Source: a virus
IMG/VR virus record: IMGVR_UViG_3300025018_000121
Coordinates: 1-64,000 of that record
Direction: 5' to 3' (one strand)
DNA length: 64,000 nt
This document shows positions 31,875 through 62,753 of the stretch, piece by piece; the stretch's first letter is position 1; every line of letters starts with the position of its first letter. The notes below the pieces were generated by a model. It saw only the letters and a program-made list of their open reading frames with translations, was not told where the DNA came from and made no database searches. Position numbers and translations under genes: made by a program.

Positions 31875-34800
31875 ATGGATAGAATTAATCCCCTCAACAA
31901 AGAAGTTACTGCTTCTGTTGAAAACGAAAAAGTAAACCTGAAAAAGTTTGCCGAAACTGCGCGTGTACGTCCTAATTTCTCTCCGCAAATTCAGCCTATG
32001 TATAAACAGCCCGCTATCAAAAACGGGGTTGTAGACACAGATGATTTCGGTAATGAAAAGTATTTGTTTATTAACGGTACTTATTTTGATTTGTTGCGTT
32101 TGCCTACAAACTCTGCACGTAACATTTCTAACACTGAAATGAATAAGATGCGTAATGCTATCCGTTCTATTTCAGTACGAAACACTAAAAAGGAACAAGG
32201 CACAGGCCCCGGTAAAGGCCGCAAGGCTTCTGTACCTATTTCAAAGTACAGCACTCTTGCTCATTTTTCTGACCTTGCTTACCGTTTATTGGAAGCAGGT
32301 TTCACGGCTGCTGTCCCTGAAGACATTCGTGTGCGTTCACTGGAAACAGACACTTTAGCAGAGCAGTTAAAAGAAAAAGAAAAAGAAGTAGACAGAAAAA
32401 GAGCTTCTACCAAAAGCGAGAAAGAAAAAGAACAGCGTGAGCGTAAGCTTATGCTCGAAGGACAGCCCCGCGATTTCTTCAAATACTTTCACGATACTTT
32501 TACCGACGATTGGAATAAAAAACAGATTCCAATGTTTAGTCAAAAGGTACGTGTAAAAGGCGGCGGTGGCGCTTTTAAAGTCGCACTTCCTATCGCGAGC
32601 CGTGATCTTTCTAATCTGACTGGCGAATTATTTAATAAATCCGCTCTTGCACGTAGCGAGTATTCCGTTCCTGTATTAAAAATTATCGACGCCTTGAAAG
32701 ATATATTTAAGCTGAACCTTCGTAATAAAGGTTCTAGCTCTGTTTCTCTTTCATATAATGAATTTATTAATGCTATACCACAAGCGTACAGAACGTCTAT
32801 TCCTAATTTGGATAAAGCTATTTCTAAATACGTAGATGGTATTCGTATTGAAATAGGCCCTGTTAAACAAGATAAAAACTTTGAGAAACATGTTCGTGAT
32901 CTTCAAAAAGATATTGAAACTTTTGAGTTAACGGATGATCTGGTAGATGGCGAAAGACTTGCAGGTTCTTATTTCTATAAAGAAGCTTTGAATGCACTAG
33001 CTACCTCTTTTATGAGCCGTAGCTTTACTTTCTATTTAGAAACGACTCTGCCGGCTACAGAAGCTCAATTTTTTACACAGACTCCGAAAGATAAAGTACG
33101 TGCAGTAGACGTGCTTGAATTTTTCCGTTCTGTTTACGGCACGTACTGGCTGCCTGTTGTTGAATACTATTATCCAGTAGAAGAAATTGCTCAGAAAAAC
33201 GTTGGTTTCCAGCCTAACCCCAAATCAAACGGAGACGGCCTTTGTATTAACAGCAATAACGAATTATTTTATATTCCCAACGTAAACAATATCGACCGCT
33301 TTACTGCACTAAGAAACACAGAACTGTTTGATGAAGCAACCGGCGAATATGTTTTTGAGAAATCAGATGCTGGTATTCCTCTTAATTTGAGAAACTATCT
33401 GGTTTACACGGATTGGGTTAATAATAAACTGGTTTATACAAACCGTGACGGAAAAATTACTGTTCTTGATATAGAAAACATGAACAGAATTAGACCTCAC
33501 GCTGTTGTTAGCTTATTAGATTCTAATCCTTCTATTCTTGCTAGTGTAAGTAACCCTAACCTGCCTTCCCCATTAGTTACTTTCGGTAATGCTTGTGACG
33601 CTGCTTATAGCCAAGGCTTTACGAATATGCTTTTGGACAAGGCTCAGGCACTTTTGGCAGAAACTCAAAACGCACCCATTAATAGAAAAGTTGCAGAAGA
33701 ACTTTTAGGTTCTTTACGCGACCGCGCCCCTATCAATGAATTTATTCAGGTTGCTTATAAAGCCGAAGCTTTCCGTCTTTATTCTTTAGAGGGTATGAGT
33801 GCAGATGAAGCTTATGCTAATGCGTTTAAAAACTCCAATGCGGACGATGATGGTTTAGTTCCTTTCCAAAGAAAAATTGCTTCTGTTGGTATCCGTGAGT
33901 TCATGGGTTCTACTTACGGAAAAATGTTGGCAGAAACTTTAGATTTCTTTGTTGATAAAATTCTTTCAAACTTACAGAACTTTATTCAAGCCTCTGGCCT
34001 CAATTCCATTCGTTTCGCATTAAGCTATTTAGGCTTGATTATCGCACTTAAAAATTACAAAGGTCGATACACAGACTTCAAAATGCTCGATCAAAAAGAG
34101 CGTGAAATTTATTTGAAGTATGACGTAAAAGACGGCGACCCTACTTATGTTGCTAAACTGCCTAACGTAGCCACTGCGAAAGACGGCGAAGGTCGTATGT
34201 TGAAAAACTTCCAGTGGCGAGCATTGTCGCTTCTAGATAAATCGCCTGAGTATTCTATTCTTGCTGTTGATGCAGGTGGTGGTAAAACTATTAGTATTAT
34301 CGCTAACATTCTTCAAGAATTACAGAAAAAGAAAGTCACACGTCCTCTGGTAATTTGTCCGTCGCACCTTGTTAAAGACTATGTTGGTGAAATAAACTAT
34401 TTATGCACAGGTAAAGTAAACGCGGTTGTTATCACTAATGATACTATTAAGTCTTATACGAAAAACGGAATGCTTTCGTTGATTGAGAAAGCTCCTATCA
34501 ATACTGTATTCATAACCTCTTATGATGCTTTTACTGTAGGCGCTGACTTTAATCTCTATTGCAACGAAGTATTAGAAGACTACAGACACTTGGATTTCTT
34601 TAGACAAGCTGCCTTCGATGGTGTTTGGTTAGACGAATCTCATTATCTGAAAAATAAATCTACTCGTTTTTATGCTGTAAGTTACGCTATCGCAGAAATT
34701 CCGCTGAAGCGTCTTGCTACTGGTACTTTGGCACCTAACAGACTTAAAGATATTGTTAATCAGTTTGCTTTATTTGACCCGACTGTTTTCGGTTCCGTTA

Positions 34801-37800
34801 GCCAGTTTGAAAAATTGGTGGATGCAAGTCCGGGTGAAATTCCGCAAGTGATTATGGAAAAACTGAAAGGGCACTGTACGTTTATTAATATCAAACGTCG
34901 TGAATGGGCGGCTGAGTTGCCTACACGTATTCAGTCTTTTGACCCTGTAGTAACTATCCAGTCTGAAAAACAAAAATTACTCTACCGTGCTTTATTGAAT
35001 GACGCCGCTAAAGAAGCTTTGAATGATGATCTGTTAAAAAACGAAATGGATAAAACTCATAGCGAAGCCAGTGAAAACGATGAAGATAGTGACGAACGTC
35101 CTGACGATATGTCACAAGATGAAGTTCAACACTTAGTTACTAAGCAGTTGGATAAACATCTTGCACATATTGAATTGTTTTTATCTGCGCCTATGGCACA
35201 TCCTATTGCAAGACTTAAAGTTGACGGTAAACCTTACCTGTCAGAACACTTAGATCAAATGTCGCCAAAAGTTCCTGTAGTTGAATATCACTACAGGGAT
35301 CACATGGATTTCATTCGTACAGGTGTAATTTGGGAGCGTGACGAAAATGGTAACTACGCAGTTGAAACTTATAAAGACCCTGTTAGTGGGAAATATATTC
35401 CTATAGATAATGGCCACGGCGGTAAAGTTGCTGCACAAGGTTTTAGAAAAGAAGACGGCTCACCTGATATTTTAGGAGAATCACCAGAGCGTAAAAATAA
35501 AGTTCTTGTTTTCACAAACTGGAAAGAATCCGTAGAAGAAATTTTTAGATTTTTAGCACCTGACATTAAAGCACGTACTATGAAGTATTATGCTTCAGAT
35601 AAAGTGCGTAAGTTTAATGAGTTTCGAGACAACGATCATTTTATGATGATGATTGGTATTGGTAAGTCTATGAACACAGGTCTTAACTTACAATTCTGTT
35701 CACGTCTTATTCTTTTAGAAGCTGTATGGGCACCGGGCGACTTGGAACAATCTTTAGCACGTGTATTCCGTCCAGTTAAACTTGAAATTGACGCCAACGG
35801 AAATAGAAAACCTGATCCGCGTAAACGTGTATTTATTAATCATGTTATTGTGGATGAAACAATTGATATTTTCAAAACTGGTAATCTTATTTCCAAGTGG
35901 GTTCAAATTACTAAGACAATGAACGCAGATAATCCTTTGTATGATAAAATTCCAGAAGTTCCTGAAATTCGTTTGAGTCTTAAAAATCTTTTCGGTGGTA
36001 CTGAAGGTGTTTTCGTTGAAGAATTGGAAAATCATAAAAACGCTTTCTTAACACTGCTTGCTGTAGAGCACGAAGACTTCAGAACATTTAAATTAAATAA
36101 TCCTGACAAACTTGAAGTTAAACCAATTGAAAATGCTCCTAACTTAGAAGGCTCTGCAATTCTTGATAAAGTTCCCTACGTTCCGGGCATGTCTATCTAC
36201 AACGATTCAGATGACTTGGATTTAATTCCGTATAATGAGTGGAAACGTCAGTATATGTTAGAAAATGACGGCCACTTTAATCTTGAAGAAATTGTAGCTG
36301 CTGAACCTGTTTATATTCACTGTGAACTTGGCGACGGTTTTGCTATTAAAGAAGGTAGCCGCAAGACTAAAAAAGCTAAGAAAGCGGATTCTGATTTGTT
36401 AGTTGAAGAGGATGAAGCAGAGGATGAAGCTTTTGATTCAGACTTTGATATAAATGTAACTGAAGACCAAATCCGTTCAGGCAATTTAGATTGGGAAAAG
36501 ATTAAAGACAACGTTAGCAACATTGTTGACGACGACGATACTGAAGAAGACGTAAAAGACGATAAGAAGAAAAATGTAAGAGTACGCTTTTACATTGATG
36601 ATAGTACACTGACTAAAGAAGAACTTAATATACTGAGAGATAGTGGAGAAGACGTTGATATCAAAGATATTACGTTCTCTATTTCAATGAATCCTGATAA
36701 ACTGTTTGTTATTGCTAAAAATGTGTCGTCTAAACGTGTTCGTGACATTGTTATTGAACAGATTGAAGGCATTGATGACGTAACTAAAACTGGACTTGCT
36801 TATCAACCCTACAAGAAAGCAACTGATCCTGCTTATCAAGAAACCAAATTAAAAGCTGCTATTGAAAAACTTAAAAAGAGAGTTAACCGTCATACTAAGA
36901 GACTGGAAGAAGAAGAAGCTGAACGCAAAAATAACTTGAAAGAAGCAACTCGGGAAGCTGACCAAGAAAAACGTGGTCGTGGCCGTCCGAGAAAAACACC
37001 AGTTGATGAAATTAAACCGGAAGACATTATGCCGGAGTCTACTGAGCGTGAGCATCTGACAGTTAACGTTTCTCAGGCTTTCGGATTCCTTGCACTTACT
37101 GTGTCTGCTGAACACGACGCAAGTATGAAAAAACTTAATTCTTTAATTACACACTCTGAGTTTTTTGACATTGGCCCTTATTACGCTGTTCCTGTTTCTG
37201 CTTCAAAGTTCGATAAATTAGCTATAATGATAGACAATATCTCTCCATTGTTTAATAACGGTGTACCAATTCTTAAAGACTCTCCTATTATCAAAAACCC
37301 AGTTCATTACATTAAGAAAGGAAAATTTTACGTAAATAAACTTACTGGTAATAAAATTGACGCAGAAGCTTTTGAAGCTGGAGAATATGTAAACAAGGCA
37401 GAAAAAAGACCTAAGTTTAATCTTGAAGATAATGTTTACGGTATGCTTGCCAATGTTGAAGAATCCTTTGACCTTTGGGTTAAGAGAAAGCAGTTAAAGT
37501 TTGCCCGTGGTAAGGTAAACGATGAAATTCAAATTCGTAGAAACTATAAAAAGAAATCCAAACCTGATGAATTGAGAATGTTCACTTTGTTTAAACGTGC
37601 CACTGCAAATAAATACGGTCTGTTCCTTTGTGTTCCGACTAAGACTAATGCGGGAGGCGCAGTATCATGGTTTAAACAGAAGGCAAAAGCAGAGGGTGCA
37701 TCTCTTCCTGTAATTAAAGAGTCTGGTATGTACGTTGCTCTTTATCCTATGGGTAAAAAAGCGGACCTGACTGCCGATCTTAATTCACTGAAAGAAAACT

Positions 37801-37874
37801 TTAAAATCGACAACAAAGACGAAATTAAAGAAGACTTAGCTAGACTTAAAGTACCGGGTAGAAAACCCTCTTAA
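31875..37874 (+). CDS. giant SNF2/SWI2-family helicase (about 2000 aa; ATG start at 31875)
   Basis: AVDAGGGKT, LVICPSHL, WLDESHYLKN, LATGT, TGLNLQ, WAPGDLEQSLARVFR; GGAG RBS before ATG 31875. Confidence 0.88.
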   Translation: MDRINPLNKEVTASVENEKVNLKKFAETARVRPNFSPQIQPMYKQPAIKNGVVDTDDFGNEKYLFINGTYFDLLRLPTNSARNISNTEMNKMRNAIRSISVRNTKKEQGTGPGKGRKASVPISKYSTLAHFSDLAYRLLEAGFTAAVPEDIRVRSLETDTLAEQLKEKEKEVDRKRASTKSEKEKEQRERKLMLEGQPRDFFKYFHDTFTDDWNKKQIPMFSQKVRVKGGGGAFKVALPIASRDLSNLTGELFNKSALARSEYSVPVLKIIDALKDIFKLNLRNKGSSSVSLSYNEFINAIPQAYRTSIPNLDKAISKYVDGIRIEIGPVKQDKNFEKHVRDLQKDIETFELTDDLVDGERLAGSYFYKEALNALATSFMSRSFTFYLETTLPATEAQFFTQTPKDKVRAVDVLEFFRSVYGTYWLPVVEYYYPVEEIAQKNVGFQPNPKSNGDGLCINSNNELFYIPNVNNIDRFTALRNTELFDEATGEYVFEKSDAGIPLNLRNYLVYTDWVNNKLVYTNRDGKITVLDIENMNRIRPHAVVSLLDSNPSILASVSNPNLPSPLVTFGNACDAAYSQGFTNMLLDKAQALLAETQNAPINRKVAEELLGSLRDRAPINEFIQVAYKAEAFRLYSLEGMSADEAYANAFKNSNADDDGLVPFQRKIASVGIREFMGSTYGKMLAETLDFFVDKILSNLQNFIQASGLNSIRFALSYLGLIIALKNYKGRYTDFKMLDQKEREIYLKYDVKDGDPTYVAKLPNVATAKDGEGRMLKNFQWRALSLLDKSPEYSILAVDAGGGKTISIIANILQELQKKKVTRPLVICPSHLVKDYVGEINYLCTGKVNAVVITNDTIKSYTKNGMLSLIEKAPINTVFITSYDAFTVGADFNLYCNEVLEDYRHLDFFRQAAFDGVWLDESHYLKNKSTRFYAVSYAIAEIPLKRLATGTLAPNRLKDIVNQFALFDPTVFGSVSQFEKLVDASPGEIPQVIMEKLKGHCTFINIKRREWAAELPTRIQSFDPVVTIQSEKQKLLYRALLNDAAKEALNDDLLKNEMDKTHSEASENDEDSDERPDDMSQDEVQHLVTKQLDKHLAHIELFLSAPMAHPIARLKVDGKPYLSEHLDQMSPKVPVVEYHYRDHMDFIRTGVIWERDENGNYAVETYKDPVSGKYIPIDNGHGGKVAAQGFRKEDGSPDILGESPERKNKVLVFTNWKESVEEIFRFLAPDIKARTMKYYASDKVRKFNEFRDNDHFMMMIGIGKSMNTGLNLQFCSRLILLEAVWAPGDLEQSLARVFRPVKLEIDANGNRKPDPRKRVFINHVIVDETIDIFKTGNLISKWVQITKTMNADNPLYDKIPEVPEIRLSLKNLFGGTEGVFVEELENHKNAFLTLLAVEHEDFRTFKLNNPDKLEVKPIENAPNLEGSAILDKVPYVPGMSIYNDSDDLDLIPYNEWKRQYMLENDGHFNLEEIVAAEPVYIHCELGDGFAIKEGSRKTKKAKKADSDLLVEEDEAEDEAFDSDFDINVTEDQIRSGNLDWEKIKDNVSNIVDDDDTEEDVKDDKKKNVRVRFYIDDSTLTKEELNILRDSGEDVDIKDITFSISMNPDKLFVIAKNVSSKRVRDIVIEQIEGIDDVTKTGLAYQPYKKATDPAYQETKLKAAIEKLKKRVNRHTKRLEEEEAERKNNLKEATREADQEKRGRGRPRKTPVDEIKPEDIMPESTEREHLTVNVSQAFGFLALTVSAEHDASMKKLNSLITHSEFFDIGPYYAVPVSASKFDKLAIMIDNISPLFNNGVPILKDSPIIKNPVHYIKKGKFYVNKLTGNKIDAEAFEAGEYVNKAEKRPKFNLEDNVYGMLANVEESFDLWVKRKQLKFARGKVNDEIQIRRNYKKKSKPDELRMFTLFKRATANKYGLFLCVPTKTNAGGAVSWFKQKAKAEGASLPVIKESGMYVALYPMGKKADLTADLNSLKENFKIDNKDEIKEDLARLKVPGRKPS

Positions 37875-37886
37875 TCCACGAAAACC

Positions 37887-37908
37887 GGGCGGTTGAAATA
37901 TACCGCCC
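37887..37908 (+). other. GC-rich stem-loop after SNF2 (no U-tract)
   Basis: GGGCGGT-TGAAATAT-ACCGCCC. Confidence 0.5.
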
Positions 37909-37928
37909 AAACTAATTAGGAGATACAA

Positions 37929-38564: not shown

Positions 38565-38594
38565 AGTAGTCTCCTTGCGTGTGCGTGTGTACAC

Positions 38595-38633: not shown

Positions 38634-38670
38634 AGACAGTAAGATAACCCACTGTGGTAGAGAAAAACTT

Positions 38671-50106: not shown

Positions 50107-50751
50107 ATGAAAGTTTTAAACGGCCCCGGTAATCCGATAACAGGCTCTACTTTAGCTTCGGACTTAGAAGATGAACAACTTCCGTTTGAAATTCTAGAAA
50201 GAATGAAAGAGATCGACGAAAACTTTGAGACACAAATCTTTGTTAAGAAAAGAAAGAAAGAGACAAAACAAATAAAAAAGAGTAATAAATTTCTGAATAT
50301 TAAAGGAGAGTTGCCTTTCTGTATTCACTTACCAGAAAAAACTATTTCCATGTCTGGTAGCAAAAAAGAATGGGAGCAGCATAAAAAACAAGTATCTAAG
50401 GAAATTGACGCAAAAACAACTGACATTATATCCGTAAATAAAAAATCTAAACATGCCTTTATCAATAAACTAGATCAGCACCAGAGAGACTTTGAAACTT
50501 TCTTTCTACATGAATTATCGCCCTTAGAGTCGGCGTTTGAACCTTCCTTAGATAACGTAAAACAAATACTAGAACTAATTACTAAATCAGAAGTAGACAC
50601 TGGGGATTTGGGTACATTTAGAGCAATGCTGCGCGACGTTTTATATATTAAAGCTCTTGAATTCTTTGCAGATAAAGCTAATTTAAGTGAAAGTCAGCAG
50701 GCCATATTAAACGAGAAATACTTCAGGCCAAAGGAATTCAAAAAAGAGTAA
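50107..50751 (+). CDS. hypothetical protein upstream of TerL, with MKVLN leader
   Basis: 214-aa ORF; alternative TerS candidate by position. Confidence 0.5.
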   Translation: MKVLNGPGNPITGSTLASDLEDEQLPFEILERMKEIDENFETQIFVKKRKKETKQIKKSNKFLNIKGELPFCIHLPEKTISMSGSKKEWEQHKKQVSKEIDAKTTDIISVNKKSKHAFINKLDQHQRDFETFFLHELSPLESAFEPSLDNVKQILELITKSEVDTGDLGTFRAMLRDVLYIKALEFFADKANLSESQQAILNEKYFRPKEFKKE

Positions 50752-50757: not shown

Positions 50758-53700
50758 ATGAAAACCTCAGATGTTAAATTTAGTAAAAGAAAAGCATTAG
50801 CAAAAGGAAAGAACTGTTTAAATTGTGCTTCCTTTTCCAAGTGCAGTAAAAGTAAAAAGTCAGGGTCTTATGTTTGCGAATCCTACAAGAAAATAAAAGT
50901 AAAGGGAGAAAATGCTTTTTCTCTAGAGGATATGTTTGCTGATACTAATTTCCACGTAGCAGATGACTACTCAGACTTCGTTCCCATTGAAGACGAACAC
51001 GACTTTAAAAATATGGAAATTAATGTCGTTAAAATGATGGACGAAATCTTCGAGAGCGAAAATCCCTACCCCCGTGACTTAAAAATTGATGATCGTGACT
51101 TACCGGAATTTAAAAATATTTATGAATACTTCTTTGACCCTGTTTATGGTCTAGCAAAAAATATGCAGCCTTTTTCTAGGCAGCTATGGGCTGGAGTAAA
51201 ACTCTTTGGTGATTACTGCCCTATATGCTCAGACCACAAATTTATGGAGGACATTGAAAATTGCCCTATTTCTATGAGAGCAATTGATTTTCCAGAACAT
51301 GTAGTATTTATGGAAAATGGAAAATGCCCTAAATGCAAAGGACATAAGTTAGACTTTGTTAAAAAAGGTTACATGAATTTTTATAGAGACTTTGCAGCTT
51401 GCTTAGGACAACGTTCCGGTAAGTCTGTGACTTTTTCTATGTTTAGTGGATATCATCACCACAAGTTTTTAAAAATGGGAAAGCCTGCTGAATTATTAAC
51501 AGGTCTGCCTAACGTAACTCTAACCGCAACATATACGGCAACAGATTTTAAAACTGCTATGGAAACCTTGTGGCAGCCTTTTGTAGATATTATTGACGAA
51601 TCGCCGTGGTTTAAAGCTTATCACTCTATGCTAGACCACTATGGTAAAAAATACGGCGAAGAAATTTATCGTTTTAAAGAAAGTTTCCTACATTATAAAC
51701 ACACTAAAATGTTTACGTCGGCTGCTTCACCTAACAAAAGAACAATGCGTGGTCGTTGTTTAACAGGTGATACTCTTGTTAACACGTCACAAGGCACTAT
51801 GCACTTTTCTGAATTTATTAAAGAAATGGACTACAATAAAACCGATCTACAGATTATGTCGCACCTTGGTGGGCGTACTGTAAGCCATACCTACAAGTCA
51901 GAAGAAACAGAAACCTATAAATTAAGAACCCGAAATGGTTTTTCTGTAGAAGGTACTCCAGAGCATCCAATGCTTGTTTTAAATGAAGACCTTTCTATGG
52001 ATTGGGTTACTTTAGATAAATTAAAAGTAGGGCAATGGATAGTATCAAAAACAAATAAAGAGAAAACCCTGTACGGAAATGCGAAGCTGTCTAAAACAGA
52101 TGCTGAATTACTCGGATACTTTGTAGCTAACGGTTATAGGAATGAAGTTTCGACAAACGATCAAGACGTAGCCAACCGCTTAATTTATCTAGGTAAAAAG
52201 ATAACTGGAGTAATTCCAACCCATACTAAAAATAATTCTTCTATTCGCGCAGACTCTTACAGGTTTATCTACAAAAACGGGGAGTCTAATTTCGTAAGAG
52301 ACTACTTAAATCCTTTAGGGTATGACTTTAAAAATTCAAAAGATAAAATGATTCCTGCTATTGTCAGGATGGCCCCTAGAGAAGTTATGCACGAATTTTT
52401 GGAAGCTTATTTTAAATGTGATAGTGGTATTAATGGAGGCTCAAAAAATTCCCCTTCAGAAATAGAGGTGGGTTCCGCTAGTAAAAAACTGGCTAAACAA
52501 CTACACGTTATTTTATTTAAAAACTACGGTATACTTGGAAGACTGACCAAGCACACTTTCTATGATAAACTGAACAAAACTACCGGAAACTTTAATGCAA
52601 AAAGAAACCATTGGACTATTACGATAACTGGTTACGACGCGAACCTATTTTTGCAGACTTTCAAGAAAGCAAAAGTTCAAAAATACAAAGATAGAATAAA
52701 AGACGTACCTAAAGGCTTTATGTCCGACAGAAGAAGTGTTCCTTATGTAAGAAAATTTCTTTGGGACTTATACGAAAACTCCCGACTGGTAGATACATTA
52801 GGTAAAAGACTCAGAAGACTTATTGCAGAAAATGGCAGTGTAGTCTTAAACAATATCAAGCCCAAGTGTTTTGATAGGTTACGTTCTAGTAGAGATATTT
52901 ACGAAGAAACGCCAGAATACTTAATTTACGGAGACGATTGGGATATTTTAATACCAAGAATTAAAGACCTTAATTTAAGCAAGGGTACTGCACTTAAAGA
53001 CTTTTTATCTTTTGAGGGGCACTTTGAACAAGTAGTTGAGATTAAAAAATCTTCTAAAAAGAAAACTGTATACGACGTTACCGTACCGGATGGCCATGCT
53101 TTTATTGCAAATTGTCTGGTTTCTCACAATACCCGTTTTGAATATGCAATCGACGAATTAGGCTGGTTTGATGCTTCAAGTGAATCAAAAGATAAAGTAC
53201 GTATTTCCGCAGATGAAATTTACGGCGCACTAGACCGTTCAATGAAAACAGTTATGTCTGCATCTAAAAGATTATTTCTACAAGGTTATAGTGGTACAAC
53301 ACCGGGAATGTCTTTTAATATTTCTTCGCCTTCTGCCTACGACGATAAAATTATGTCTATGTGCAGAATCCATAAAGACTCTAGAGTAGTTTTAGCGCTT
53401 CACTTACCCACTTGGAAATACAATCCTAAAGAGCCTAAAGAAAACTTCAGAAAAGAATACATGGAAGACCCTATAAAAGCTGAACGTGACTTTGGTGCTA
53501 ATCCTCCTATGGCAGCCTCGCCATTCTTTGAAAACATTAACGCCATAGTTCCAAACTTCACAGACAAAGCAAATTTCGCAACTTACGAATATTCATTAAA
53601 GAAAGTAAATAACACACTTTATAAATCTGCTAAATTGAAGTTGAGTGTACGCGGCGATATTTACCCCTCAGTCCTCGCACTAGATGCTGGTTTTTCTAAT

Positions 53701-54345
53701 AACTCTTTTGCTCTTGCTGTCGGCCACCGTAGAGAAAAAGAAACTATATTTACTACCCTTATTGAAATCATGCCAGATAAGGGTAAAAATGTTTTGAACT
53801 ACAATTCTATCTTTGAAGAAGTAGTAGTCCCTTTAGTAGACTCATTAAATGTTCAATTTATTTGTGCTGACCGTTGGAACTCTTTATTCCTTTTACATAA
53901 ATTAGAAGAAGATAAAAAAATAAAGCAAATGCAGTATAGCGTTAAATACGCAGACTTCAATTTATTTAAATCATACTCTGAGGGTAATAGAATTCTATTT
54001 CCCAAAATGGAAATGCGAGCAGAAAAAGCATTAACTATTCCTAGCACAGAATACATAGAGAAGTTTACGTACAAACCCTGTGCCCATTTATTCTCTCAGA
54101 TATTTACTGTTGAAGACAAAGGCCGCACTGTTGATAAAGGTAAAAACAGAACTGACGATTTATTTAGAGCTGTGGTATTAGCCTCTAGGTTCTTACTTGA
54201 TGATTCATGGGTAGCTGAGAATCTTAATTTAACCAAAAGAAAAAACAGCAATATGGGAATCGTTGCACTGGCTAATGGTGCAAGCCCTACAGGCACTTTA
54301 GCTACGGCAACAGGTAAAGGAATTATTTCGTCAGGAGGTCATTAA
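50758..54345 (+). CDS. terL: terminase large subunit containing an intein
   Basis: GQRSGKS Walker A, AIDELGW Walker B, ISSP, ALDAG, ADRWNS, TDDLFRA; N-terminal Cys clusters. Confidence 0.9.
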   Translation: MKTSDVKFSKRKALAKGKNCLNCASFSKCSKSKKSGSYVCESYKKIKVKGENAFSLEDMFADTNFHVADDYSDFVPIEDEHDFKNMEINVVKMMDEIFESENPYPRDLKIDDRDLPEFKNIYEYFFDPVYGLAKNMQPFSRQLWAGVKLFGDYCPICSDHKFMEDIENCPISMRAIDFPEHVVFMENGKCPKCKGHKLDFVKKGYMNFYRDFAACLGQRSGKSVTFSMFSGYHHHKFLKMGKPAELLTGLPNVTLTATYTATDFKTAMETLWQPFVDIIDESPWFKAYHSMLDHYGKKYGEEIYRFKESFLHYKHTKMFTSAASPNKRTMRGRCLTGDTLVNTSQGTMHFSEFIKEMDYNKTDLQIMSHLGGRTVSHTYKSEETETYKLRTRNGFSVEGTPEHPMLVLNEDLSMDWVTLDKLKVGQWIVSKTNKEKTLYGNAKLSKTDAELLGYFVANGYRNEVSTNDQDVANRLIYLGKKITGVIPTHTKNNSSIRADSYRFIYKNGESNFVRDYLNPLGYDFKNSKDKMIPAIVRMAPREVMHEFLEAYFKCDSGINGGSKNSPSEIEVGSASKKLAKQLHVILFKNYGILGRLTKHTFYDKLNKTTGNFNAKRNHWTITITGYDANLFLQTFKKAKVQKYKDRIKDVPKGFMSDRRSVPYVRKFLWDLYENSRLVDTLGKRLRRLIAENGSVVLNNIKPKCFDRLRSSRDIYEETPEYLIYGDDWDILIPRIKDLNLSKGTALKDFLSFEGHFEQVVEIKKSSKKKTVYDVTVPDGHAFIANCLVSHNTRFEYAIDELGWFDASSESKDKVRISADEIYGALDRSMKTVMSASKRLFLQGYSGTTPGMSFNISSPSAYDDKIMSMCRIHKDSRVVLALHLPTWKYNPKEPKENFRKEYMEDPIKAERDFGANPPMAASPFFENINAIVPNFTDKANFATYEYSLKKVNNTLYKSAKLKLSVRGDIYPSVLALDAGFSNNSFALAVGHRREKETIFTTLIEIMPDKGKNVLNYNSIFEEVVVPLVDSLNVQFICADRWNSLFLLHKLEEDKKIKQMQYSVKYADFNLFKSYSEGNRILFPKMEMRAEKALTIPSTEYIEKFTYKPCAHLFSQIFTVEDKGRTVDKGKNRTDDLFRAVVLASRFLLDDSWVAENLNLTKRKNSNMGIVALANGASPTGTLATATGKGIISSGGH
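51757..53130 (+). mobile_element. 458-aa intein with LAGLIDADG-type endonuclease domain
   Basis: GR|CLTGDTLV ... TPEHP ... LLGYFVANG ... FLEAYFKCDSG ... VYDVTV..GHAFIANCLVSHN|T. Confidence 0.93.
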
Positions 54346-54380: not shown

Positions 54381-54575
54381 ATGGAACGTATCAACCCATT
54401 AAATGCAGAAGTTGCGTCAGAAAAAACTTCTGAAACAGCTAATCACAATTCAATTGATGACGTATCTATTTGTCCTGCTGACGGTTGTGGAAAGCCTATG
54501 CGAATTATGCGGGCTAATGGTCATAATTGTTTTGTTTGTTTGACTCACAGAATTGCACTGCCTTGCCCCGATTAA
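54381..54575 (+). CDS. small zinc-ribbon protein with RINPLN leader
   Basis: CPADGC...CLTH; AGGAG RBS. Confidence 0.7.
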   Translation: MERINPLNAEVASEKTSETANHNSIDDVSICPADGCGKPMRIMRANGHNCFVCLTHRIALPCPD

Positions 54576-54593: not shown

Positions 54594-56357
54594 ATGAAGC
54601 CGCTTAATAAAGTAGTGATTAAAGATAATCGAGTTGTATCTACTAAACTTGGTGGTAAAGGTACGAAAGTAGGCGCGTCCACAGAAGCAGGTAAAGAACA
54701 ATTAGCATTTACCGGAACAGGTGGCGTACAAGGCGGAAGAAATTCTGTAAGCGTCTCGACAATTGGTACAGGCTCAGTAAAATATTTAGACACTCTGTTG
54801 TCTGGTTTTATTGACGAAAGAAATGAAACGCAATTAAGAAATATATATCGTGACATTTATTATTATGACTCTGTATGTGGTGGGGCTGCTGATATGATAA
54901 GCACCCTGCCATTTTCTGATTTTTCCCTTAACGGTTTGGACGATAAAAAACTTGAAGTGTATCAACACGCAGTAGACCGTCTTAACTTAAAAACACAGTT
55001 CCCTTCTTTTGCTTTAGGTTATTTAGTCGATGCAGAATATGCAGGTACTCTAGTTATGCAGGATAAATCCTTTACGGATATTCTGCCACACGACATTCAA
55101 GACTGTAATATTGAGGACATGCCTTTCGTTTCACAAGACCCGTTAATTACAGTTTCTAAATCAGAAAAGCTTAAAAACTTTTTGGAGAGTGAAGCAGAAG
55201 TAATTAAGCGTCAGCGTAGAAACTATCCTGCAAAAATGCTGAAGGCACTAGAAGAAAATGAATTTGAACTTGACCCTTTGACAACAATTTATTTAGCACG
55301 TAAAGGAATTAATGGAAAACCAACTTCTTTCTTCAGGCGCGTACTTCCGTGGTACTTAATTGAGAAAACTCTTTTGCGGGGTACTATTGTAGAAGCTTCT
55401 AAACGTCAGCGCTCTGCATTGCATGTTGCTGCTGGCGGTGATATGTGGGAGCCAACACCTGAAGAATTATCTGCTATCGTTGCGCTTTTTCAACAAGCAG
55501 ACTTTGATCCTTTAGGCCCAACTATCGCCACAAGAAATGATATTCAGATAAATGAAATTCGCCAAGGCGGAGACTTCTGGAAAATTACAGATGTTATTGA
55601 TACTACTAACCAATTAAAAATGAGAGCACTAGGAATTAGTGAAGCCTTTTTAAGTGGTGACGTTACTTACAACACTTCAGAAGCTGCATTGTCTGTATTC
55701 ATTGAGAATATCCGTACTTTCCGTGACTACATGACACAACAAACTTTCTATCGTAAAATGTTCCCGCTTATTGCACATTTAAATGGATTCACAAAAAAGA
55801 AATCAGAAACTGCACAAACTCTTTCTTTTAGAATTAATGACACTACATCGTATGATATTCCACAAGTACGTTGGCATAAATCTCTGCACCCGCACTCTGA
55901 TAGAGACACTATGGAAATTCTTAATCAAATGGCAGACAAAGGAATTCCCGTTACTTTAAGAATGTGGGCGGCTGCCGGCGGTATTGATTTAGATAGTGTT
56001 ATTAATGAATTAGATCAGGACAAAAAAATTCGTGCCAGAATAAAAGAAAAGACTGCTGACATGGACAATGACGGCATGAATGATAATGCTGAAATTGGCG
56101 AAGACAATTTTTCTTTTGCTAAACTCGCTCCTATTAGACGTATTGGTATGTTTGGTAGAGACTACGGCGAAGCTGCTGAAATTACAGGCACTACTGTTAC
56201 AGGTAAAAAGAAATACATATACAATCAAAAAGCTGCTAACGAAAAAGCTAACTGGCATATTGTTCAAGCCTTGTCTGCATTAAACGACCCTAGTCATTAC
56301 ATAGACACCAAAAAGAAAATTCAGAGTCGCTTAGGTAGAAGCAGGCGCGTGAGGTAA
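54594..56357 (+). CDS. portal protein
   Basis: position between TerL and protease; YRDIY...VCGGA.D; RALGISEAFLSGDVTY pattern. Confidence 0.75.
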   Translation: MKPLNKVVIKDNRVVSTKLGGKGTKVGASTEAGKEQLAFTGTGGVQGGRNSVSVSTIGTGSVKYLDTLLSGFIDERNETQLRNIYRDIYYYDSVCGGAADMISTLPFSDFSLNGLDDKKLEVYQHAVDRLNLKTQFPSFALGYLVDAEYAGTLVMQDKSFTDILPHDIQDCNIEDMPFVSQDPLITVSKSEKLKNFLESEAEVIKRQRRNYPAKMLKALEENEFELDPLTTIYLARKGINGKPTSFFRRVLPWYLIEKTLLRGTIVEASKRQRSALHVAAGGDMWEPTPEELSAIVALFQQADFDPLGPTIATRNDIQINEIRQGGDFWKITDVIDTTNQLKMRALGISEAFLSGDVTYNTSEAALSVFIENIRTFRDYMTQQTFYRKMFPLIAHLNGFTKKKSETAQTLSFRINDTTSYDIPQVRWHKSLHPHSDRDTMEILNQMADKGIPVTLRMWAAAGGIDLDSVINELDQDKKIRARIKEKTADMDNDGMNDNAEIGEDNFSFAKLAPIRRIGMFGRDYGEAAEITGTTVTGKKKYIYNQKAANEKANWHIVQALSALNDPSHYIDTKKKIQSRLGRSRRVR

Positions 56358-56359
56358 TT

Positions 56360-57370: not shown

Positions 57371-57380
57371 GGATTTATTT

Positions 57381-58157
57381 ATGCGTCAGGATTTTCAAGA
57401 CTTGAGTTTAAGAGAGGCTGTCTACGCTGACGCCTTTATGGAAGGTAAAGCAATTGATATTCACAAAGAGGTACGTTCTAAGAATATTCAAATTGCTACT
57501 AATGATATGGTTTTAAATAAAAGTTCCAACGTTCTTACAACAGAAGCAGAGCAGAAATTGGATATTACTAACTGGCTCCCTTTTGCTTCTAAAAAATATT
57601 TAATCAGCCCTGATATTAACGATTATATTTTTGTTCCTGTTTTGACTATCCCGTCTGACTTACCTAACAGAAATGGCGTAGCGTTTCCGTTGAAAACTCT
57701 ATTGGAATTTAATGTTGATGCAGGCTGCCAAGGCTATAAAACTTTTAGAGGCAAGCCTGTACATTACGAACATCAAAATAAAGACCCGACGAAAGCAAAA
57801 GGTGTTATCGTTGATTCTTTTTTACGCCGTATTAATGGTTTTGGTGGTGGTAACGTCTGGAAGGTAATGTTGTTGCTTGCTATTGATAGAACAAAAGACG
57901 TTTCTCTTTCTAGTCAGATTATTAGTGGTGAAATGAACTCTTATTCAATGGGAGCTTACGTAGATAAATATACTTGTTCTTATTGTGGCTCCGATGTTGG
58001 AAAATGCACTCACATTAAAGCAAATAGCCCTGTTAATTTTTACGAACTTAATGGCGACCTTGTATTTAAAAATATGCACGGCATGATGGGTTTTGAGTGT
58101 TCGTCTGTAGGCACGCCCGCTTGGAGTCCTGCTGCGAGTAATACTGTTTATATGTGA
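57381..58157 (+). CDS. prohead maturation protease with Zn-finger insertion
   Basis: PNRNG.AF, GKPVHYEH, SYSMG..V...CSYCG....CTH, FECSSV..PA. Confidence 0.75.
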   Translation: MRQDFQDLSLREAVYADAFMEGKAIDIHKEVRSKNIQIATNDMVLNKSSNVLTTEAEQKLDITNWLPFASKKYLISPDINDYIFVPVLTIPSDLPNRNGVAFPLKTLLEFNVDAGCQGYKTFRGKPVHYEHQNKDPTKAKGVIVDSFLRRINGFGGGNVWKVMLLLAIDRTKDVSLSSQIISGEMNSYSMGAYVDKYTCSYCGSDVGKCTHIKANSPVNFYELNGDLVFKNMHGMMGFECSSVGTPAWSPAASNTVYM

Positions 58158-58164
58158 GGCATTT

Positions 58165-59478
58165 ATGAAAGTTTTAAATGCAGAGCTTGCAGGTCTGTCT
58201 GATATTATTTTTCACGGTACAGACATAGATAAAGCATTTGCTATATTAAAACAGAACAAATTTATTCTAGCCTTTTCAAAAACAGGTTCTGCTGAAGACA
58301 GTCTTAATCCAAACCCTAAATTTCACTTTTATCTTTCTACTGCACGTTCAAAATTAAGTCACTACATTAGAACAAATAGCCCTGAAGCTATTTTTGTACT
58401 AGACGGTAGAAAGCTAGGTCAAAAATATAAAGGTGGGCCAATTAACTACTGGAAAGGTTTTTCTGAAAAAGAGCAAAAAGAAAAAGAGAAAGAAGATAGG
58501 GTTTACACAAAAGACTCTTATATCCCTAATGCCTACACCTATATAAAAGAATTGCAGGTTTCAGTAGACAGGCTAAACGATTACCGTAAAAAATATTTAC
58601 TTGGCCTATTAAAACTTGCTAAAAAGCACAACGTAAAAGTAGTTGGGTTTAAAACTTTCAAAGGTATGTTGATAAATAGTAGAACGGAAAGGCTAACAGA
58701 AGACGAATTGTTTGCTGCTGTTTCAGACGTTAAAGGAAAGCCCGATAGCCCTTATAGCTACACAAAGCCAGAAGATATAAGCATTTTTGTTTACGCTTAC
58801 GAACGGATGGAAGAAGCTATTAAAAAGAATCAAGATTTCTATAAGCTACTGGCTTCAAAGAATTATGCTAGATCAAAGTACGCTAAGAAATATAAAGTTT
58901 ACGACTTGCTACAACATGTTTTTCCACACAATCATCATGATTTTATTAGCACCCTAAGTATGTACATTGGAAACTCTAGACGAAACATGTCGCCAGAATT
59001 AAACGATGCCGTACAGTCTTTAAGTCGTTTAATGCGTAGACTAAAAGTAAATGACTTGGCTAATCTCTTTATAAAGTTTCGAGACTTATATTCAGAGTAT
59101 AACACTCAGTCTTCTGTAAGATCAAAGCAACGATCCTTATTGTCTGCTAAAAAAGTAGCGCGTACTAAAGGATTATTGTATTCCGAAGTGACTCTAAAAG
59201 ATGATGACCTTATTATAGTTCACGGAGCTAGAATAAAAAATAGGATAACTAAGAAAGACCTGTTAGACGTTGCTATGCACTTAACAAACAGTTTGCTTAA
59301 TATTTTTTGGGGAATGAAAAGAATTGAAATAAAACTAAGCAAGCCTATAACGAAAAGCCAATTGTCTGTACTAGAAGAACTTGGATTTTCAGGCGATGGC
59401 CGAGAATATCTTTATATCAGTTACTACTCGTACAACAGAATTGATTTGGAATCTGTAAATTCAACAGAACTCGCGTAA
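58165..59478 (+). CDS. ADP-ribosyltransferase-like protein with MKVLN leader
   Basis: IFHGT ... YLSTARS ... EKEDR triad pattern in the N-terminal 130 aa. Confidence 0.5.
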   Translation: MKVLNAELAGLSDIIFHGTDIDKAFAILKQNKFILAFSKTGSAEDSLNPNPKFHFYLSTARSKLSHYIRTNSPEAIFVLDGRKLGQKYKGGPINYWKGFSEKEQKEKEKEDRVYTKDSYIPNAYTYIKELQVSVDRLNDYRKKYLLGLLKLAKKHNVKVVGFKTFKGMLINSRTERLTEDELFAAVSDVKGKPDSPYSYTKPEDISIFVYAYERMEEAIKKNQDFYKLLASKNYARSKYAKKYKVYDLLQHVFPHNHHDFISTLSMYIGNSRRNMSPELNDAVQSLSRLMRRLKVNDLANLFIKFRDLYSEYNTQSSVRSKQRSLLSAKKVARTKGLLYSEVTLKDDDLIIVHGARIKNRITKKDLLDVAMHLTNSLLNIFWGMKRIEIKLSKPITKSQLSVLEELGFSGDGREYLYISYYSYNRIDLESVNSTELA

Positions 59479-59489
59479 GAGGGTGAGCT

Positions 59490-60110
59490 ATGACAGGTAC
59501 GTACATAGAAGCTAAATTTAAACCAGTTTGTGTAGAAAAAATCTACGCCGTTGCTAATCGAGCAGCGGCTTTATTGCAGTGTACTCCTATTGAAAAAGAA
59601 CAAATTCACTGCACCGTTTTATATTCAGAAATACCTAAAGAACCAAGGAAAGGCGAGTTTAAAGTAAATTGGAAAGTATCTACTAAAAAATATGATTTAT
59701 TCGGCCCCGAAAAAGATTGTCTTGTTATTCTTTTAAATTGCCCTGAATTAGTTAGGTTAAACTCAATGTGTATGTCAGCAGGTGCAACCTCTACATACGC
59801 TCAATACTGTCCGCATATTACTTTGGCTTATGGCACGGACGCTGAGTTATTTAATTACCACAGCAAGCAGTTAAACAAAATGTTAGAATCATTATCTTGT
59901 TTAACTATAGACTCTATACACGTAAAGCCCTTAGTAAGAGACTGGAAAATAACGGTTGAATCAAAATACATGGACAAAGACCTCTGTTGGAAAAACTACA
60001 CAATGGTCGGACTAAAGAAAGACAAGAAAGGAAACTTAGTTCCTAATTGTGTACCAAAAGAGGATGTAAAAGAAAAAATCGAAAGCAGACTGTTGAGAGT
60101 AAGTCTGTAA
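59490..60110 (+). CDS. acb1: Acb1-like 2H phosphoesterase (anti-CBASS) with C-terminal extension
   Basis: GTYIEAKF, IHCTVLYS, GAT....Y.PHITLAY, PL..DW match the T4 57B/Acb1 pattern. Confidence 0.8.
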   Translation: MTGTYIEAKFKPVCVEKIYAVANRAAALLQCTPIEKEQIHCTVLYSEIPKEPRKGEFKVNWKVSTKKYDLFGPEKDCLVILLNCPELVRLNSMCMSAGATSTYAQYCPHITLAYGTDAELFNYHSKQLNKMLESLSCLTIDSIHVKPLVRDWKITVESKYMDKDLCWKNYTMVGLKKDKKGNLVPNCVPKEDVKEKIESRLLRVSL

Positions 60111-60114
60111 AGTA
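60106..60114 (+). promoter_or_regulatory. TGTAAAGTA class-1 promoter-like motif
   Basis: overlaps the acb1 stop codon; upstream of the ParB-like gene and ligase. Confidence 0.55.
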
Positions 60115-60128
60115 AGCGACCTACAAAG

Positions 60129-60608
60129 GTGTACATAATATCGTTCAAGGAACTTAAAATGCTTCTGTACAATTCTCCCCAGATGCGCAATTTTGTTAAA
60201 AAGAAAGGAGCCATTGGAACTATCCAAATGCCAATAAAAACCTTTCTGAAATTAACTTCCAATACAAGACTTCCTAGAATTAAAAAAGAGGCTATGTCAG
60301 TAGGTGAATATAATGCACTGGCACTGCAAGGAAAGATAAATACTATGCCTTTTATTCGCATTTTACCTAACGGGAAAGTAAAAGGTCACGAAGGCAGACA
60401 CCGTTCATGGTCTTTGTATCGTGAAGGTGAGCGCTACATTGAAGTGGCAATTATTGTTACTAAGCCAGATACAGAAAAAGGAAAAGGAAAGAATAAAACT
60501 TACGAAACACTACCTAAATTTAAATCGAGAGACTTGCCTACTATTTGGGAAGGCCAGTTTTCAGAAGTTAAGTTACCTGTAAAACTTCAAACATTTAAAA
60601 GGATGTGA
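60129..60608 (+). CDS. ParB/sulfiredoxin-like domain protein (start probably ATG 60159)
   Basis: MPFI....V.GHEGRHR...L...G...IEV. Confidence 0.55.
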   Translation: MYIISFKELKMLLYNSPQMRNFVKKKGAIGTIQMPIKTFLKLTSNTRLPRIKKEAMSVGEYNALALQGKINTMPFIRILPNGKVKGHEGRHRSWSLYREGERYIEVAIIVTKPDTEKGKGKNKTYETLPKFKSRDLPTIWEGQFSEVKLPVKLQTFKRM

Positions 60609-60868
60609 ACATGGAAAAAATATTGATGGGCCGTGACAATCCAGACGGACATAAGTTAGAAGAACTACTAAAAAGATTGCAGGAAGAAATTGAGTCAAAG
60701 TCTCGTTTACTGACTGAGAACTCTGATTTAACTAAAATGATTATTGAGTCTAACGATAAAATAGTAAAGCTCCTTTATGAAGCTGAACAAATTCAAATAA
60801 ATACTATGAAAGAAATAGAAAAACAGAGAGGCCCTAACAGAGGGCCGTCGAATCCGCGAGTTAGCTGA
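60605..60868 (+). CDS. small coiled-coil protein
   Basis: ILMGRDNPDGHKLEELL followed by coiled coil. Confidence 0.6.
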   Translation: MNMEKILMGRDNPDGHKLEELLKRLQEEIESKSRLLTENSDLTKMIIESNDKIVKLLYEAEQIQINTMKEIEKQRGPNRGPSNPRVS

Positions 60869-60875
60869 GGGCGGT

Positions 60876-62753
60876 ATGAAAGTGCTTAATGAAGAAAAAG
60901 CAAGCTCACAGCAGATTAAAGCACTCGAAGCTAAAATTAAACGAGCTTCGGACATTTATTATAATACTGGCAAAATAATCATGCCAGATAAAGAATTCGA
61001 CAAACTTGTTGAAGAATTAAAAGTACTAAGCCCAAAATCAAAAGTCTTGCAGCAGATAGGCGCACCTGTTAAAAGACAAAAAGTTAAGCTGATGTATTTC
61101 ATGGGAAGCCTTGACAAAATTAAGGCGGAAAATGCAGATACATGGTTGCAGAATAAAAGACCTAAGAATGGATATTGCGTCTCAGATAAAATTGATGGTG
61201 TTTCTATTTTAATTGTTTACACACCTAAAGAAATAAAAGCATTTACACGCGGGGATGGCACTTACGGACAAGACATTTCCTTTTTAGTACCTCACTTGGG
61301 TATCCCAACATTAAAAACTAATCTGGTATTGCGAGCCGAAATCGTAATGCCTGTTTCGCGTTTTGAAACGTGGAAAAAAGATTTTGAGAATCCAAGAAAT
61401 CTAGTATCAGGTATTGTTAATCGTAAATCTATCCACAGGGCTACCAGAGACTTAGACGTAATTGTTTACGAACAAATATCTCCAAGAATTGCACAAAGCC
61501 AAGCACTAGAAAAATTAAAAGGTGTTGGCTTTAAAGTTGTACCCTTCAAAATATTTAAAGACCTTAATTCAAGTCTGTTATCTGAACTATTGAAATCAAG
61601 AAAACAGAAATCTAAATACGAAATTGATGGTCTTGTTGTTACTGTTAATGATAGCAACCCCGTTAATACAATGGGAAATCCAAGCTGGGCGAAAGCCTTT
61701 AAAGAAGTTGGCGAAGGTGCTGTACAGGAAGCCGAAGTTGTTGACGTTCATTGGGAAATATCCAAGCGTGGTTTATTGAAGCCTAGAGTAGAAATTAAAC
61801 CACTACGTTTAAGCGGTGTAACCGTTAAGTTTGCTACAGGCTTTAATGCAAAGTTTATCGAAGACAATAAAATTGGCCCCGGTGCGAAAATAAAAATCGT
61901 TAGGTCAGGTGACGTAATTCCGCACATAATGGAGGTTGTAAAGCCGGCTAAAACTGCACGTCTCCCTACTGATAAAGAATTCCGGTATATGTGGAATAAA
62001 ACCGGGGTAGACATTGTTGCTATTGACAAGAAAAGCCATAAGTCTTATCAAGTAAAACGCTTGAATCATTTCTTCAAAACATTAGGCGTAGAAAATTTCA
62101 GTATTGGTTTAATCGAACGCTTTTTGTTAGACGGTCTTGATTCAATCGGAAAGATTACCAAAGCATCTAAGAAAAGACTGCTACAAGTAAATGGTATTCA
62201 AGAAAAATCAGCAGAAAAGATTTATTCCAATATTCAGACGGCAATTAAAAACGTACCTTTGGATAAACTAATGGATGCTTCTGGTTTGTTTGAAAATATG
62301 GCCCAGAAGAAAATCAAAAAAGTGTTGGATAAATATCCTAAAATTTTAGACTCTTTTTCCAAAGTGCCTACTCAGACTTTAGTAGATAAATTAAAACAAG
62401 TAGAGGGTTTTAGCGATGTGTCAGCAAAGGAGTTCGCTAAAGGTCTTCCGAAGTTTGTTGCCTTCGTAAATAAATATCCTAATATCACTTACGTTGTACC
62501 CAAAGAAAAGAAAACGCAAATAAAAGGAAAACTCGCTGGAAAAAGTTTTGTGTTTACAGGTTTTAGAGATAGACACTTGGAGTCTACACTTGAATCCAAA
62601 GGCGGTAAAATAGGAGCGGGTGTAACTAAAACCACAACAATTCTTATCGTTAAAGATAAGTCAGCAGGTTCTACTAAGATACAAAAAGCAGAAGCTCTAG
62701 GCGTGAAAGTAATGGACGCTAATGAATTTCGACGTTGGCTTGATAAACAATAG
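60876..62753 (+). CDS. ligA: NAD+-dependent DNA ligase (no Zn finger; C-terminal BRCT)
   Basis: YYNTG..IMPD.EFD, MGSLDK, KIDG, TRGDG..GQD, YEIDGLVV, AFK, RSGDVIP, FVFTGFRD BRCT. Confidence 0.95.
   Translation: MKVLNEEKASSQQIKALEAKIKRASDIYYNTGKIIMPDKEFDKLVEELKVLSPKSKVLQQIGAPVKRQKVKLMYFMGSLDKIKAENADTWLQNKRPKNGYCVSDKIDGVSILIVYTPKEIKAFTRGDGTYGQDISFLVPHLGIPTLKTNLVLRAEIVMPVSRFETWKKDFENPRNLVSGIVNRKSIHRATRDLDVIVYEQISPRIAQSQALEKLKGVGFKVVPFKIFKDLNSSLLSELLKSRKQKSKYEIDGLVVTVNDSNPVNTMGNPSWAKAFKEVGEGAVQEAEVVDVHWEISKRGLLKPRVEIKPLRLSGVTVKFATGFNAKFIEDNKIGPGAKIKIVRSGDVIPHIMEVVKPAKTARLPTDKEFRYMWNKTGVDIVAIDKKSHKSYQVKRLNHFFKTLGVENFSIGLIERFLLDGLDSIGKITKASKKRLLQVNGIQEKSAEKIYSNIQTAIKNVPLDKLMDASGLFENMAQKKIKKVLDKYPKILDSFSKVPTQTLVDKLKQVEGFSDVSAKEFAKGLPKFVAFVNKYPNITYVVPKEKKTQIKGKLAGKSFVFTGFRDRHLESTLESKGGKIGAGVTKTTTILIVKDKSAGSTKIQKAEALGVKVMDANEFRRWLDKQ

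Follow-up and report, generated by a model that had tools for sequence, protein, structure and literature searches.

The window analysed here, 64,000 nucleotides long, covers the opening 64 kb of one 91,093-bp phage contig (IMG/VR record IMGVR_UViG_3300025018_000121). Four of its genes encode proteins with different domains that have a short N-terminal peptide of the form [VP]LNxE..A[SG] in common, a candidate tag for targeting proteins to the capsid. The carriers are an SNF2-family helicase protein, a small zinc-ribbon-like protein, a protein with an ADP-ribosyltransferase (ART) fold, and an NAD+-dependent DNA ligase; the resemblance is statistically strong for the SNF2/zinc-ribbon pair only. 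The tags and the genes that carry them are:

31875..31916, + strand: tag of the SNF2 protein, MDRINPLNKEVTAS, 14 amino acids (aa); scored against the zinc-ribbon tag (43, see below)
31875..37874, + strand: 1999-aa helicase protein of the SNF2 family, a candidate for packaged cargo comparable to DarB; Pfam SNF2-rel_dom and Helicase_C
54381..54419, + strand: tag of the zinc-ribbon protein, MERINPLNAEVAS, 13 aa; from N-terminal scoring
54381..54575, + strand: 64-aa Cys-rich (zinc-ribbon-like) protein between the genes for the large terminase (TerL) and the portal; no family match
58165..58194, + strand: tag of the ART-fold protein, MKVLNAELAG, 10 aa; residues 1-6 modelled with a predicted local distance difference test (pLDDT) below 50
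58165..59478, + strand: 437-aa protein with an N-terminal ART fold (Tpt1/DarT-like), directly downstream of the head protease gene
60876..60905, + strand: tag of the ligase, MKVLNEEKAS, 10 aa; Pfam Nlig-Ia from residue 12
60876..62753, + strand: NAD+-dependent DNA ligase (LigA type); Pfam adenylation, OB and BRCT domains

The common N-terminal peptide

The four N-termini listed above are present where the first-pass annotation of this DNA had placed them, and all seven N-termini that it cited read as it wrote them, each after a plausible ribosome-binding site (GGAG/GAGG). Motif counts refer to a call of 113 open reading frames (ORFs) over the whole 91-kb genome. The pattern [VP]LN.E.{1,2}A[SG] has four occurrences, all at residues 3-14 and none internal (0.39 expected if uniform). 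The shorter pattern LN.E is found eight times, half of them N-terminal (4 of 8), and [VP]L[NA]xE six times, never past residue 25; the additional carriers are the major capsid protein (MCP, PVLAAE) and a scaffold-like protein (VLASE). At the level of DNA, the SNF2 and zinc-ribbon tags use different codons for 8 of the 10 identical residues that have degenerate codons (AGA/CGT, CTC/TTA, TCT/TCA and others), and the DNA preceding the four start codons is unrelated. The similarity of the tags has therefore been kept at the peptide level.

As a control, all-against-all scores of N-terminal 14-mers were compared with those of 40 sets of internal windows. The SNF2/zinc-ribbon pair reaches a score of 43, compared to a control maximum of 34. 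The proposed excess of N-terminal similarity thus stands for this pair, which lies beyond all controls, and is marginal for the pair of ART-like protein and ligase with its MKVLN starts. It is lost for three weaker matches, namely the proteins starting at 50107 and 31291 and the portal protein: these are at chance level and the N-termini of their orthologues differ, hence the count is four tagged proteins rather than seven. The 214-aa protein at 50107..50751 (+ strand; possibly the small terminase, by position only) probably starts with MKVLN by chance: orthologues of this conserved gene in front of TerL have the 'NPI' part of the N-terminus in common and lack MKVLN. The portal protein (54594..56357, + strand; phrog_16240, E 4e-154) starts with MKPLNK, which is unsupported as a tag, and the orthologues of the portal and of the 31291 protein have unrelated N-termini. 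A 169-aa protein starting with MKVLE at genome position 66315 was rejected as a paralogue of the ART protein by BLASTP. Searches with the 437-aa, 64-aa, 214-aa and 190-aa proteins against Pfam, PHROGs and PDB sequences gave no matches. The suggestion that the leader ends just before the catalytic domain agrees with both proteins for which it can be read: Pfam Nlig-Ia begins at residue 12 of the ligase, and alignments of ART-like homologues begin at residues 10-11.

The four carriers and their relatives

The SNF2 protein contains SNF2-rel_dom and Helicase_C at residues 792-1299, and residues 1-790 and 1300-1999 match no Pfam family; no methyltransferase was detected in the protein. The gene is a core gene in the 95 phage records that also have the portal, and in RSL1 its orthologue is found about 1 kb upstream of the head protease gene. 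In PaBG the orthologue is gp202 (1969 aa; BLASTP 1e-46, 24% identity over 711 aligned columns), and both genomes have the order helicase, lysozyme or peptidoglycan-binding gene, DNA polymerase, with one extra small gene before the polymerase in PaBG. In CsCl-purified PaBG virions gp202 is band 1 (221 kDa) of 14 Coomassie-visible proteins (PMC7412058 Table 1). This is the sole experimental anchor of the analysis, and by orthology it makes packaging of the SNF2 protein well supported; we consider it quite probable that the protein is packaged. Its leader is less constant than its core. A word-based homologue search with residues 1-700 returned the query itself only, and an exhaustive HMMER search returned 50 relatives with variable leaders of 15-35 residues before a conserved 'RPxF' element, whose N-termini have no motif in common. 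The orthologue of Vibrio phage GR11A starts with ...AKLNNEVELVTAAS, reminiscent of PLNKEVTAS, while the leaders of most other orthologues differ. In the closest IMG/VR relative (G002, 66-72 kb, locus L058) the SNF2 gene is preceded by a run of four paralogues that start with M[KH]TLELAKKA... and contain 'WLKDHP'; the run extends to six with two MKTLELAKKA/MKTISFALAA starts just upstream in a whole-contig ORF call.

The zinc-ribbon protein has a counterpart in position throughout its relatives, where a small gene in the gap between TerL and portal starts with M(T)ERI[IY]P or similar. It is possibly a prohead core or portal-associated protein, and on balance we expect it to be packaged, if by a narrow preference.

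For the 437-aa protein, an AlphaFold2 (AF2) model built with 26 homologues has a mean pLDDT of 79, with the low values noted above for the first six residues and about 95 from residue 11. With VIA-align, residues 5 to ~170 of the model match Tpt1 (7yw4; Z 10.8, root-mean-square deviation 2.9 over 114 residues) and DarT (7omw; Z 8.4), and Foldseek gives a probability of 1.00 for both DarT and Tpt1, such that the earlier label 'ART-like' is borne out at the level of the fold. H17, G81, Y88, Y95, E108, E110 and R112 are invariant in the alignment of the 26 homologues; H17, Y88, Y95, E108 and E110 are candidates for the His, Tyr and Glu of a conserved NAD+ site. Nearly all homologues possess a pre-sequence of 9-18 residues that ends in [LI]-x-E directly before the conserved [GA][ILV][ST]D...YHxT. 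Members of the family are widespread in phage contigs, and in several of these the ART homologue is located within an array of otherwise dissimilar genes that bear the same leader: MRAQDFLIE, MRANEFLIE, MRVQEFITE and MKTYQFITE (L019), MRAREFIIE three times and MRFKEILNE twice (L047), and MKKLMDRWRVFINE, MKHLMREWRKFLSE and MKLLMENWRKFLKE (L036). Another contig (L024) has the leader dialect MIKLKDILxE. In T4-like contigs these array leaders resemble the capsid-targeting sequence (CTS) of T4, MKTYQEFIAE (PMC8442874). The ART fold, the [LI]-x-E leaders of the family, its place in arrays with T4-CTS-like leaders, and the adjacency to the head protease gene make the capsid-targeting reading well supported for this protein, and we regard it as likely to be packaged. 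The closest homologue (P0002, 44% identity) ends in a NUDIX domain, a hint of ADP-ribose chemistry.

The ligase matches PF01653, PF03120 and PF00533 above the cut-offs, as well as PF22745 (Nlig-Ia) and PF14520 (HhH) below them, and is by its domain content a complete LigA-type enzyme. The pre-sequences of its nearest homologues are MKVLETAVTS, MKILETLNTEVAG, MKLLPVVAG and MKMLTVLTETAAS, and a homologue at 52% identity has LNTEVAG within its pre-sequence. Many ligases of ~200-280 kb contigs start with ...I[MQ][IV]SLSA[ST]. On a 281-kb contig (L080:2377-14010), eight genes around the ligase start with MKI[KQ][IV]SLSA, the ligase frame reading KIMISLSSSG, and these eight leader-bearing genes have no homology to one another past residue 20. 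On a 47-kb contig (L081:6998-9986) the ligase starts with MSKIQVSLSTSG and adjoins genes starting with MKISISLSA and MKLFISLSS. Since the ligases of the window, L080 and L081 all carry the local tag, the ligase recurs in tag-bearing gene sets across three dialects, which argues against pure chance in the window. An IMG/VR query with the single ligase sequence gave no matches, and a query with a ligase alignment returned mostly giant-virus ligases. The ligases of the two other large phages (L080, L081) lend indirect support, by analogy, to the ligase as tagged cargo; its packaging is a tentative proposal that we hold to be somewhat doubtful.

Tags on unrelated proteins also occur in some relatives of the phage, as indicated by an enrichment of particular starts. 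In one relative (G001, the IMG/VR contig behind locus L003) 16 of the 97 proteins start with M[KR]x[VIL]x[VILFM], often followed by E-T-A-A-V, and the 16 contain two homologous pairs. The share of proteins with a start of this type is thus 16% in G001; it is 11% in another relative (G005) and 2% in a 400-protein pool of unrelated phage contigs. The dialect of G001 is dense (~58-82 kb, loci L076-L078), and its carriers include a metallophosphatase. Compared to its relatives, the window phage appears to use a dialect that is sparse and different.

Head assembly and competing explanations

Any capsid-targeting role of the peptide would involve the head proteins of the phage, in particular:

57381..58157, + strand: head maturation protease, presumed to remove the tag; phrog_18299, E 2e-76
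5947..7005, + strand: MCP; phrog_2522, E 1.5e-78; PVLAAE at residues 7-12
3678..5159, + strand: acidic scaffold-like protein of the head module; VLASE at residues 21-25

The RSL1 and PaBG orthologues of the 57381 protein are annotated as protease, and the protein has an invariant H131 and S189 plus a Cys cluster. The annotation of the window protein itself comes from PHROGs only, and its relation to the T4 protease gp21 is suggestive at best. The 3678 protein is probably the scaffold. It is encoded directly upstream of a virion protein and the MCP, and combines paired N-terminal CxxC motifs with a long Asp/Glu-rich stretch. Within the tag, the candidate cut sites are after the Glu of LNxE, or after A[SG]. 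Head proteases of giant phages have the logo A/S/G-x-E, with SPN3US gp245 preferring Val, less often Ala, at position P4 (PMC10052503). A cut after Glu would agree with PVLAAE of the MCP and VLASE of the scaffold-like protein, both of which fit the A/S/G-x-E logo with Leu at P4. A cut after A[SG] would agree with the VLA[SA] that three successive proteins of the head module have within their first 25 residues, and with the many leaders of relatives that end in A[GS]. The PV[LV]A[AST][ED] segment of the MCP is conserved in three orthologues; PVLAAE is possibly an A-x-E protease site, and could equally be a structural N-arm. A 'VLAS' at residue 62 of the MCP was rejected as a delta-domain cut site, as it is not conserved in the orthologues.

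On balance, we favour the interpretation that the [VP]-L-N-x-E-x(1,2)-A-[SG] start of the four proteins is a lineage-specific capsid-targeting propeptide of the kind found in T4 and P1. During prohead assembly the tag would bind the scaffold or core, probably the acidic 3678 protein, and tagged proteins would thereby be enclosed in the prohead. Upon head maturation the 57381 protease would remove the tag after the Glu of LNxE or after A[SG], and the mature proteins would remain inside the head, to be injected along with the DNA. We infer core binding, cleavage, packaging of the four proteins and injection alike; the roles proposed earlier for the injected enzymes, i.e. repair or circularisation of the genome and take-over of the host, are speculation. 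The T4-like capsid targeting suggested in the first-pass annotation gains most for the SNF2 protein, through gp202 in PaBG virions, and for the ART-like protein, and extends to the ligase by analogy; three of the seven leaders are at chance level.

The most serious alternative is coincidence combined with an N-terminal bias. The ART segment would then be the first structural element of its fold and the ligase match would be due to chance, with no common tag system; MK-hydrophobic starts would be common, as expected of AT-rich phage genomes, and only the identity between SNF2 and zinc-ribbon tags would be real, with an unrelated cause. Indeed, the ART-like/ligase pair scores 27, inside the control range of 26-34, and the occurrence of 'KVLN' in three N-termini, like that of 'K.LN' in five, has a p of ~0.06 in 500 control sets. 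Starts with M[KR] are found in 24-36% of the proteins in these genomes, the consensus xxLxEGxSDI is conserved throughout the ART family, and three of the seven examples proposed at first are at chance level. Against coincidence, however, the LNxE..A[SG] motif is N-terminal in all four cases and never internal, LNTEVAG recurs in the pre-sequence of the ligase homologue at 52% identity, the ligases of L080 and L081 bear the tags of unrelated neighbours, and the otherwise unrelated-looking neighbours of ART homologues have leaders in common. We therefore judge coincidence to be unlikely. A further alternative is a docking or regulatory signal apart from the capsid, which would recruit DNA-handling proteins to a shared partner such as a clamp, a single-stranded DNA-binding protein (SSB) or the replisome, or act as an N-terminal degron for timed removal by an AAA+ protease of host or phage. 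Each of the four carriers could plausibly act on or bind nucleic acids, the peptide is under selection, and cleavage is an inferred step of the capsid-targeting interpretation. Yet the SNF2 orthologue is physically present in PaBG virions, the zinc-ribbon and ART genes lie within the TerL-portal-protease block, and the leaders of the ART family in T4-like contigs match the experimentally defined CTS of T4. To our knowledge the tag is also unlike the beta-clamp motif QL[SD]LF, which counts against docking, and we consider this explanation decidedly unlikely. A nucleic-acid feature, i.e. a duplicated 5' gene segment or an element of translation initiation on the mRNA with the peptide as a by-product, would account for a similarity that begins exactly at the gene starts, but is contradicted by the differing codons of the SNF2 and zinc-ribbon tags and by the unrelated upstream DNA; it is highly improbable.

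Apart from the control scores just given, several observations weigh against capsid targeting. The carriers of the tag are four proteins only, and we know of no packaged NAD+ ligase. With Asn at position P3, the tag departs from both the T4 logo (L/I-x-E) and the phiKZ/SPN3US logo (A/S/G-x-E). The experimental anchor is a distant relative, the best portal identity found being 47%, neither PaBG gp202 nor the PaBG ligase has an obviously similar tag, and the PaBG ligase is not among the 14 visible virion bands (PMC7412058). The N-terminal segment of the ART-fold protein could belong to the fold itself, because it is conserved across the family and the model has a short helix at residues 5-8, with structural alignments beginning at about residue 5. 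For the protease, neither the window protein nor five orthologues have a Pfam match, and no PDB match was found by sequence or profile. An hhalign comparison with T4 gp21 is weak (E 0.07) and aligns H128 and S189 to gp21 residues 85 and 140, which we take to be catalytic, and an AF2 model from a 2-sequence alignment is unusable (pLDDT 31).

Extended to other genomes, capsid targeting would mean that PaBG/RSL1-related and other large phages load a variable enzyme cargo by means of interchangeable lineage-specific tags, with the NAD+ ligase as a recurrent cargo that bears at least three tag dialects (window, L080, L081). This generalization is possible, though we would not expect it to hold. If it did, the genome would arrive together with an enzyme ready to seal nicks, a giant SNF2 motor protein, and an ART that acts on nucleic acids. 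Were the tag to serve for loading, sequence alone would suffice to tell what an uncultured phage lineage injects. An NAD+ ligase delivered by the virion would add a new type of cargo, and would suggest that the genome has to be sealed on entry, or shielded from nicking defences, prior to the expression of any phage gene. A tag of 10-14 residues that loads proteins of 7 to 225 kDa would moreover offer a convenient means of delivering proteins in phage capsids, as with T4 and P1.

The phage, its other genes and known systems

The source phage is a myovirus and a distant relative of the PaBG/Lu11/RSL1 jumbo phages. A ligase protein identical to that of the window is also on record on a 134-kb contig, hence the 91,093-bp record may be incomplete. 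A megablast search with 13 kb against the phage collection gave no matches, that is, no close relative there. Portal and SNF2 protein each match 95 phage records with near-identical organism tallies, which include RSL1, Lu11, Dickeya JA11-type, Erwinia, BcepSauron, Motura and Vibrio GR11A phages (portal identity 36-45%); among IMG/VR relatives the best portal identity found is 47%. Between 3.6 and 72 kb, the + strand carries nearly all genes. Further features of the window, in addition to tail genes and helicases recognized by family searches, are:

5178: virion protein between the scaffold-like protein (3678) and the MCP (5947), from family searches
38671: DNA polymerase, from family searches
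50758-54345, + strand: TerL with intein; phrog_17415, Pfam Intein_splicing at residues 348-791
59490-60110, + strand: Acb1-like 2H phosphoesterase directed against the cyclic-oligonucleotide-based anti-phage signalling system (anti-CBASS); Pfam PF23474, E 8.8e-19
11815, 13988, 30234, 38625, 42660, 43587, 44513, 48014 and 60106 (+ strand) and 3128 (- strand): copies of TGTAAAGTA

The TerL intein includes a LAGLIDADG domain. The Acb1-like gene bears the PHROG label 'RNA ligase' and is the second gene after the head protease, like LigT in PaBG. The exact 9-mer TGTAAAGTA is present in 10 copies, mostly directly 5' of genes, and is a candidate phage promoter element; as a late-promoter marker of tagged genes it was rejected, since it is found before structural and replication genes alike. 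Beyond the window, at genome positions 66826-68634 (L008:4826-6634), an N-terminal motif MPxPxL...VE(E)YW(D/E)xAKxQAxKKF is found that is kept in L003, L006, L007 and Vibrio phage GR11A and looks like a small clade-wide domain.

Among known systems, T4 offers the closest parallel. In both cases a short N-terminal peptide occurs on unrelated proteins, with a Glu at a possible P1 position and the folded domain following at once. In both, the carriers include an ART-fold enzyme and are encoded in the vicinity of the portal and protease genes. The CTS of the T4 internal proteins IPI-III and the propeptide of Alt are removed by the prohead protease gp21. Alt is a packaged ART that loses a 7-residue propeptide (PMC9026906), and MKVLNAE of the ART-fold protein in the window likewise has seven residues. 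In contrast to T4, the motif is LNxE..A[SG] rather than F-I-A-E, with Asn at P3, the protease has no demonstrable sequence relation to gp21, and the carriers, known here from sequence alone, include a 225-kDa helicase and an NAD+ ligase instead of small basic proteins. For the SNF2 protein the counterpart is DarB of phage P1, a 250-kDa helicase/methylase encoded next to the portal and protease genes and packaged via an N-terminal signal of less than 30 residues (PMC9024508). Both are giant helicase-containing proteins with the (candidate) signal in the first 30 residues at most; the SNF2 orthologue of PaBG is found in virions, and that of RSL1 is encoded about 1 kb from the head protease gene. 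Unlike DarB, the SNF2 protein has no detected methyltransferase domain, and no counterparts were identified in the window phage for the helper Dar proteins on which packaging of DarB depends.

The phiKZ/SPN3US group, with the proteases gp175 and gp245, resembles the window phage in the V-L-A-[AS]-E near the N-terminus of the MCP and the scaffold-like protein. Most of the N-terminal propeptides of head and ejection proteins in this group have 111-254 residues, however, whereas the tags of the window are short and have Asn at P3, and the window phage is only distantly related to the group, if at all. PaBG gp202 (annotated as 'RuvB helicase-like', 221 kDa) has a homologous helicase core, a similar length and the same gene neighbourhood as the SNF2 protein, but differs in its N-terminal sequence (MGSLFTLNSLSAAIDAAVEEAS...). 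In the literature on RAY/Deimos-Minion (crude lysates), Matilda, MIJ3 and RSL1, no usable virion data were found. The principle itself is established by the CTS of T4 and the DarB signal of P1; what sets the present case apart is its motif, the occurrence in a small relative of the PaBG/RSL1 jumbo phages, and the candidate role of the ligase as cargo, and the gain over the known systems is incremental.

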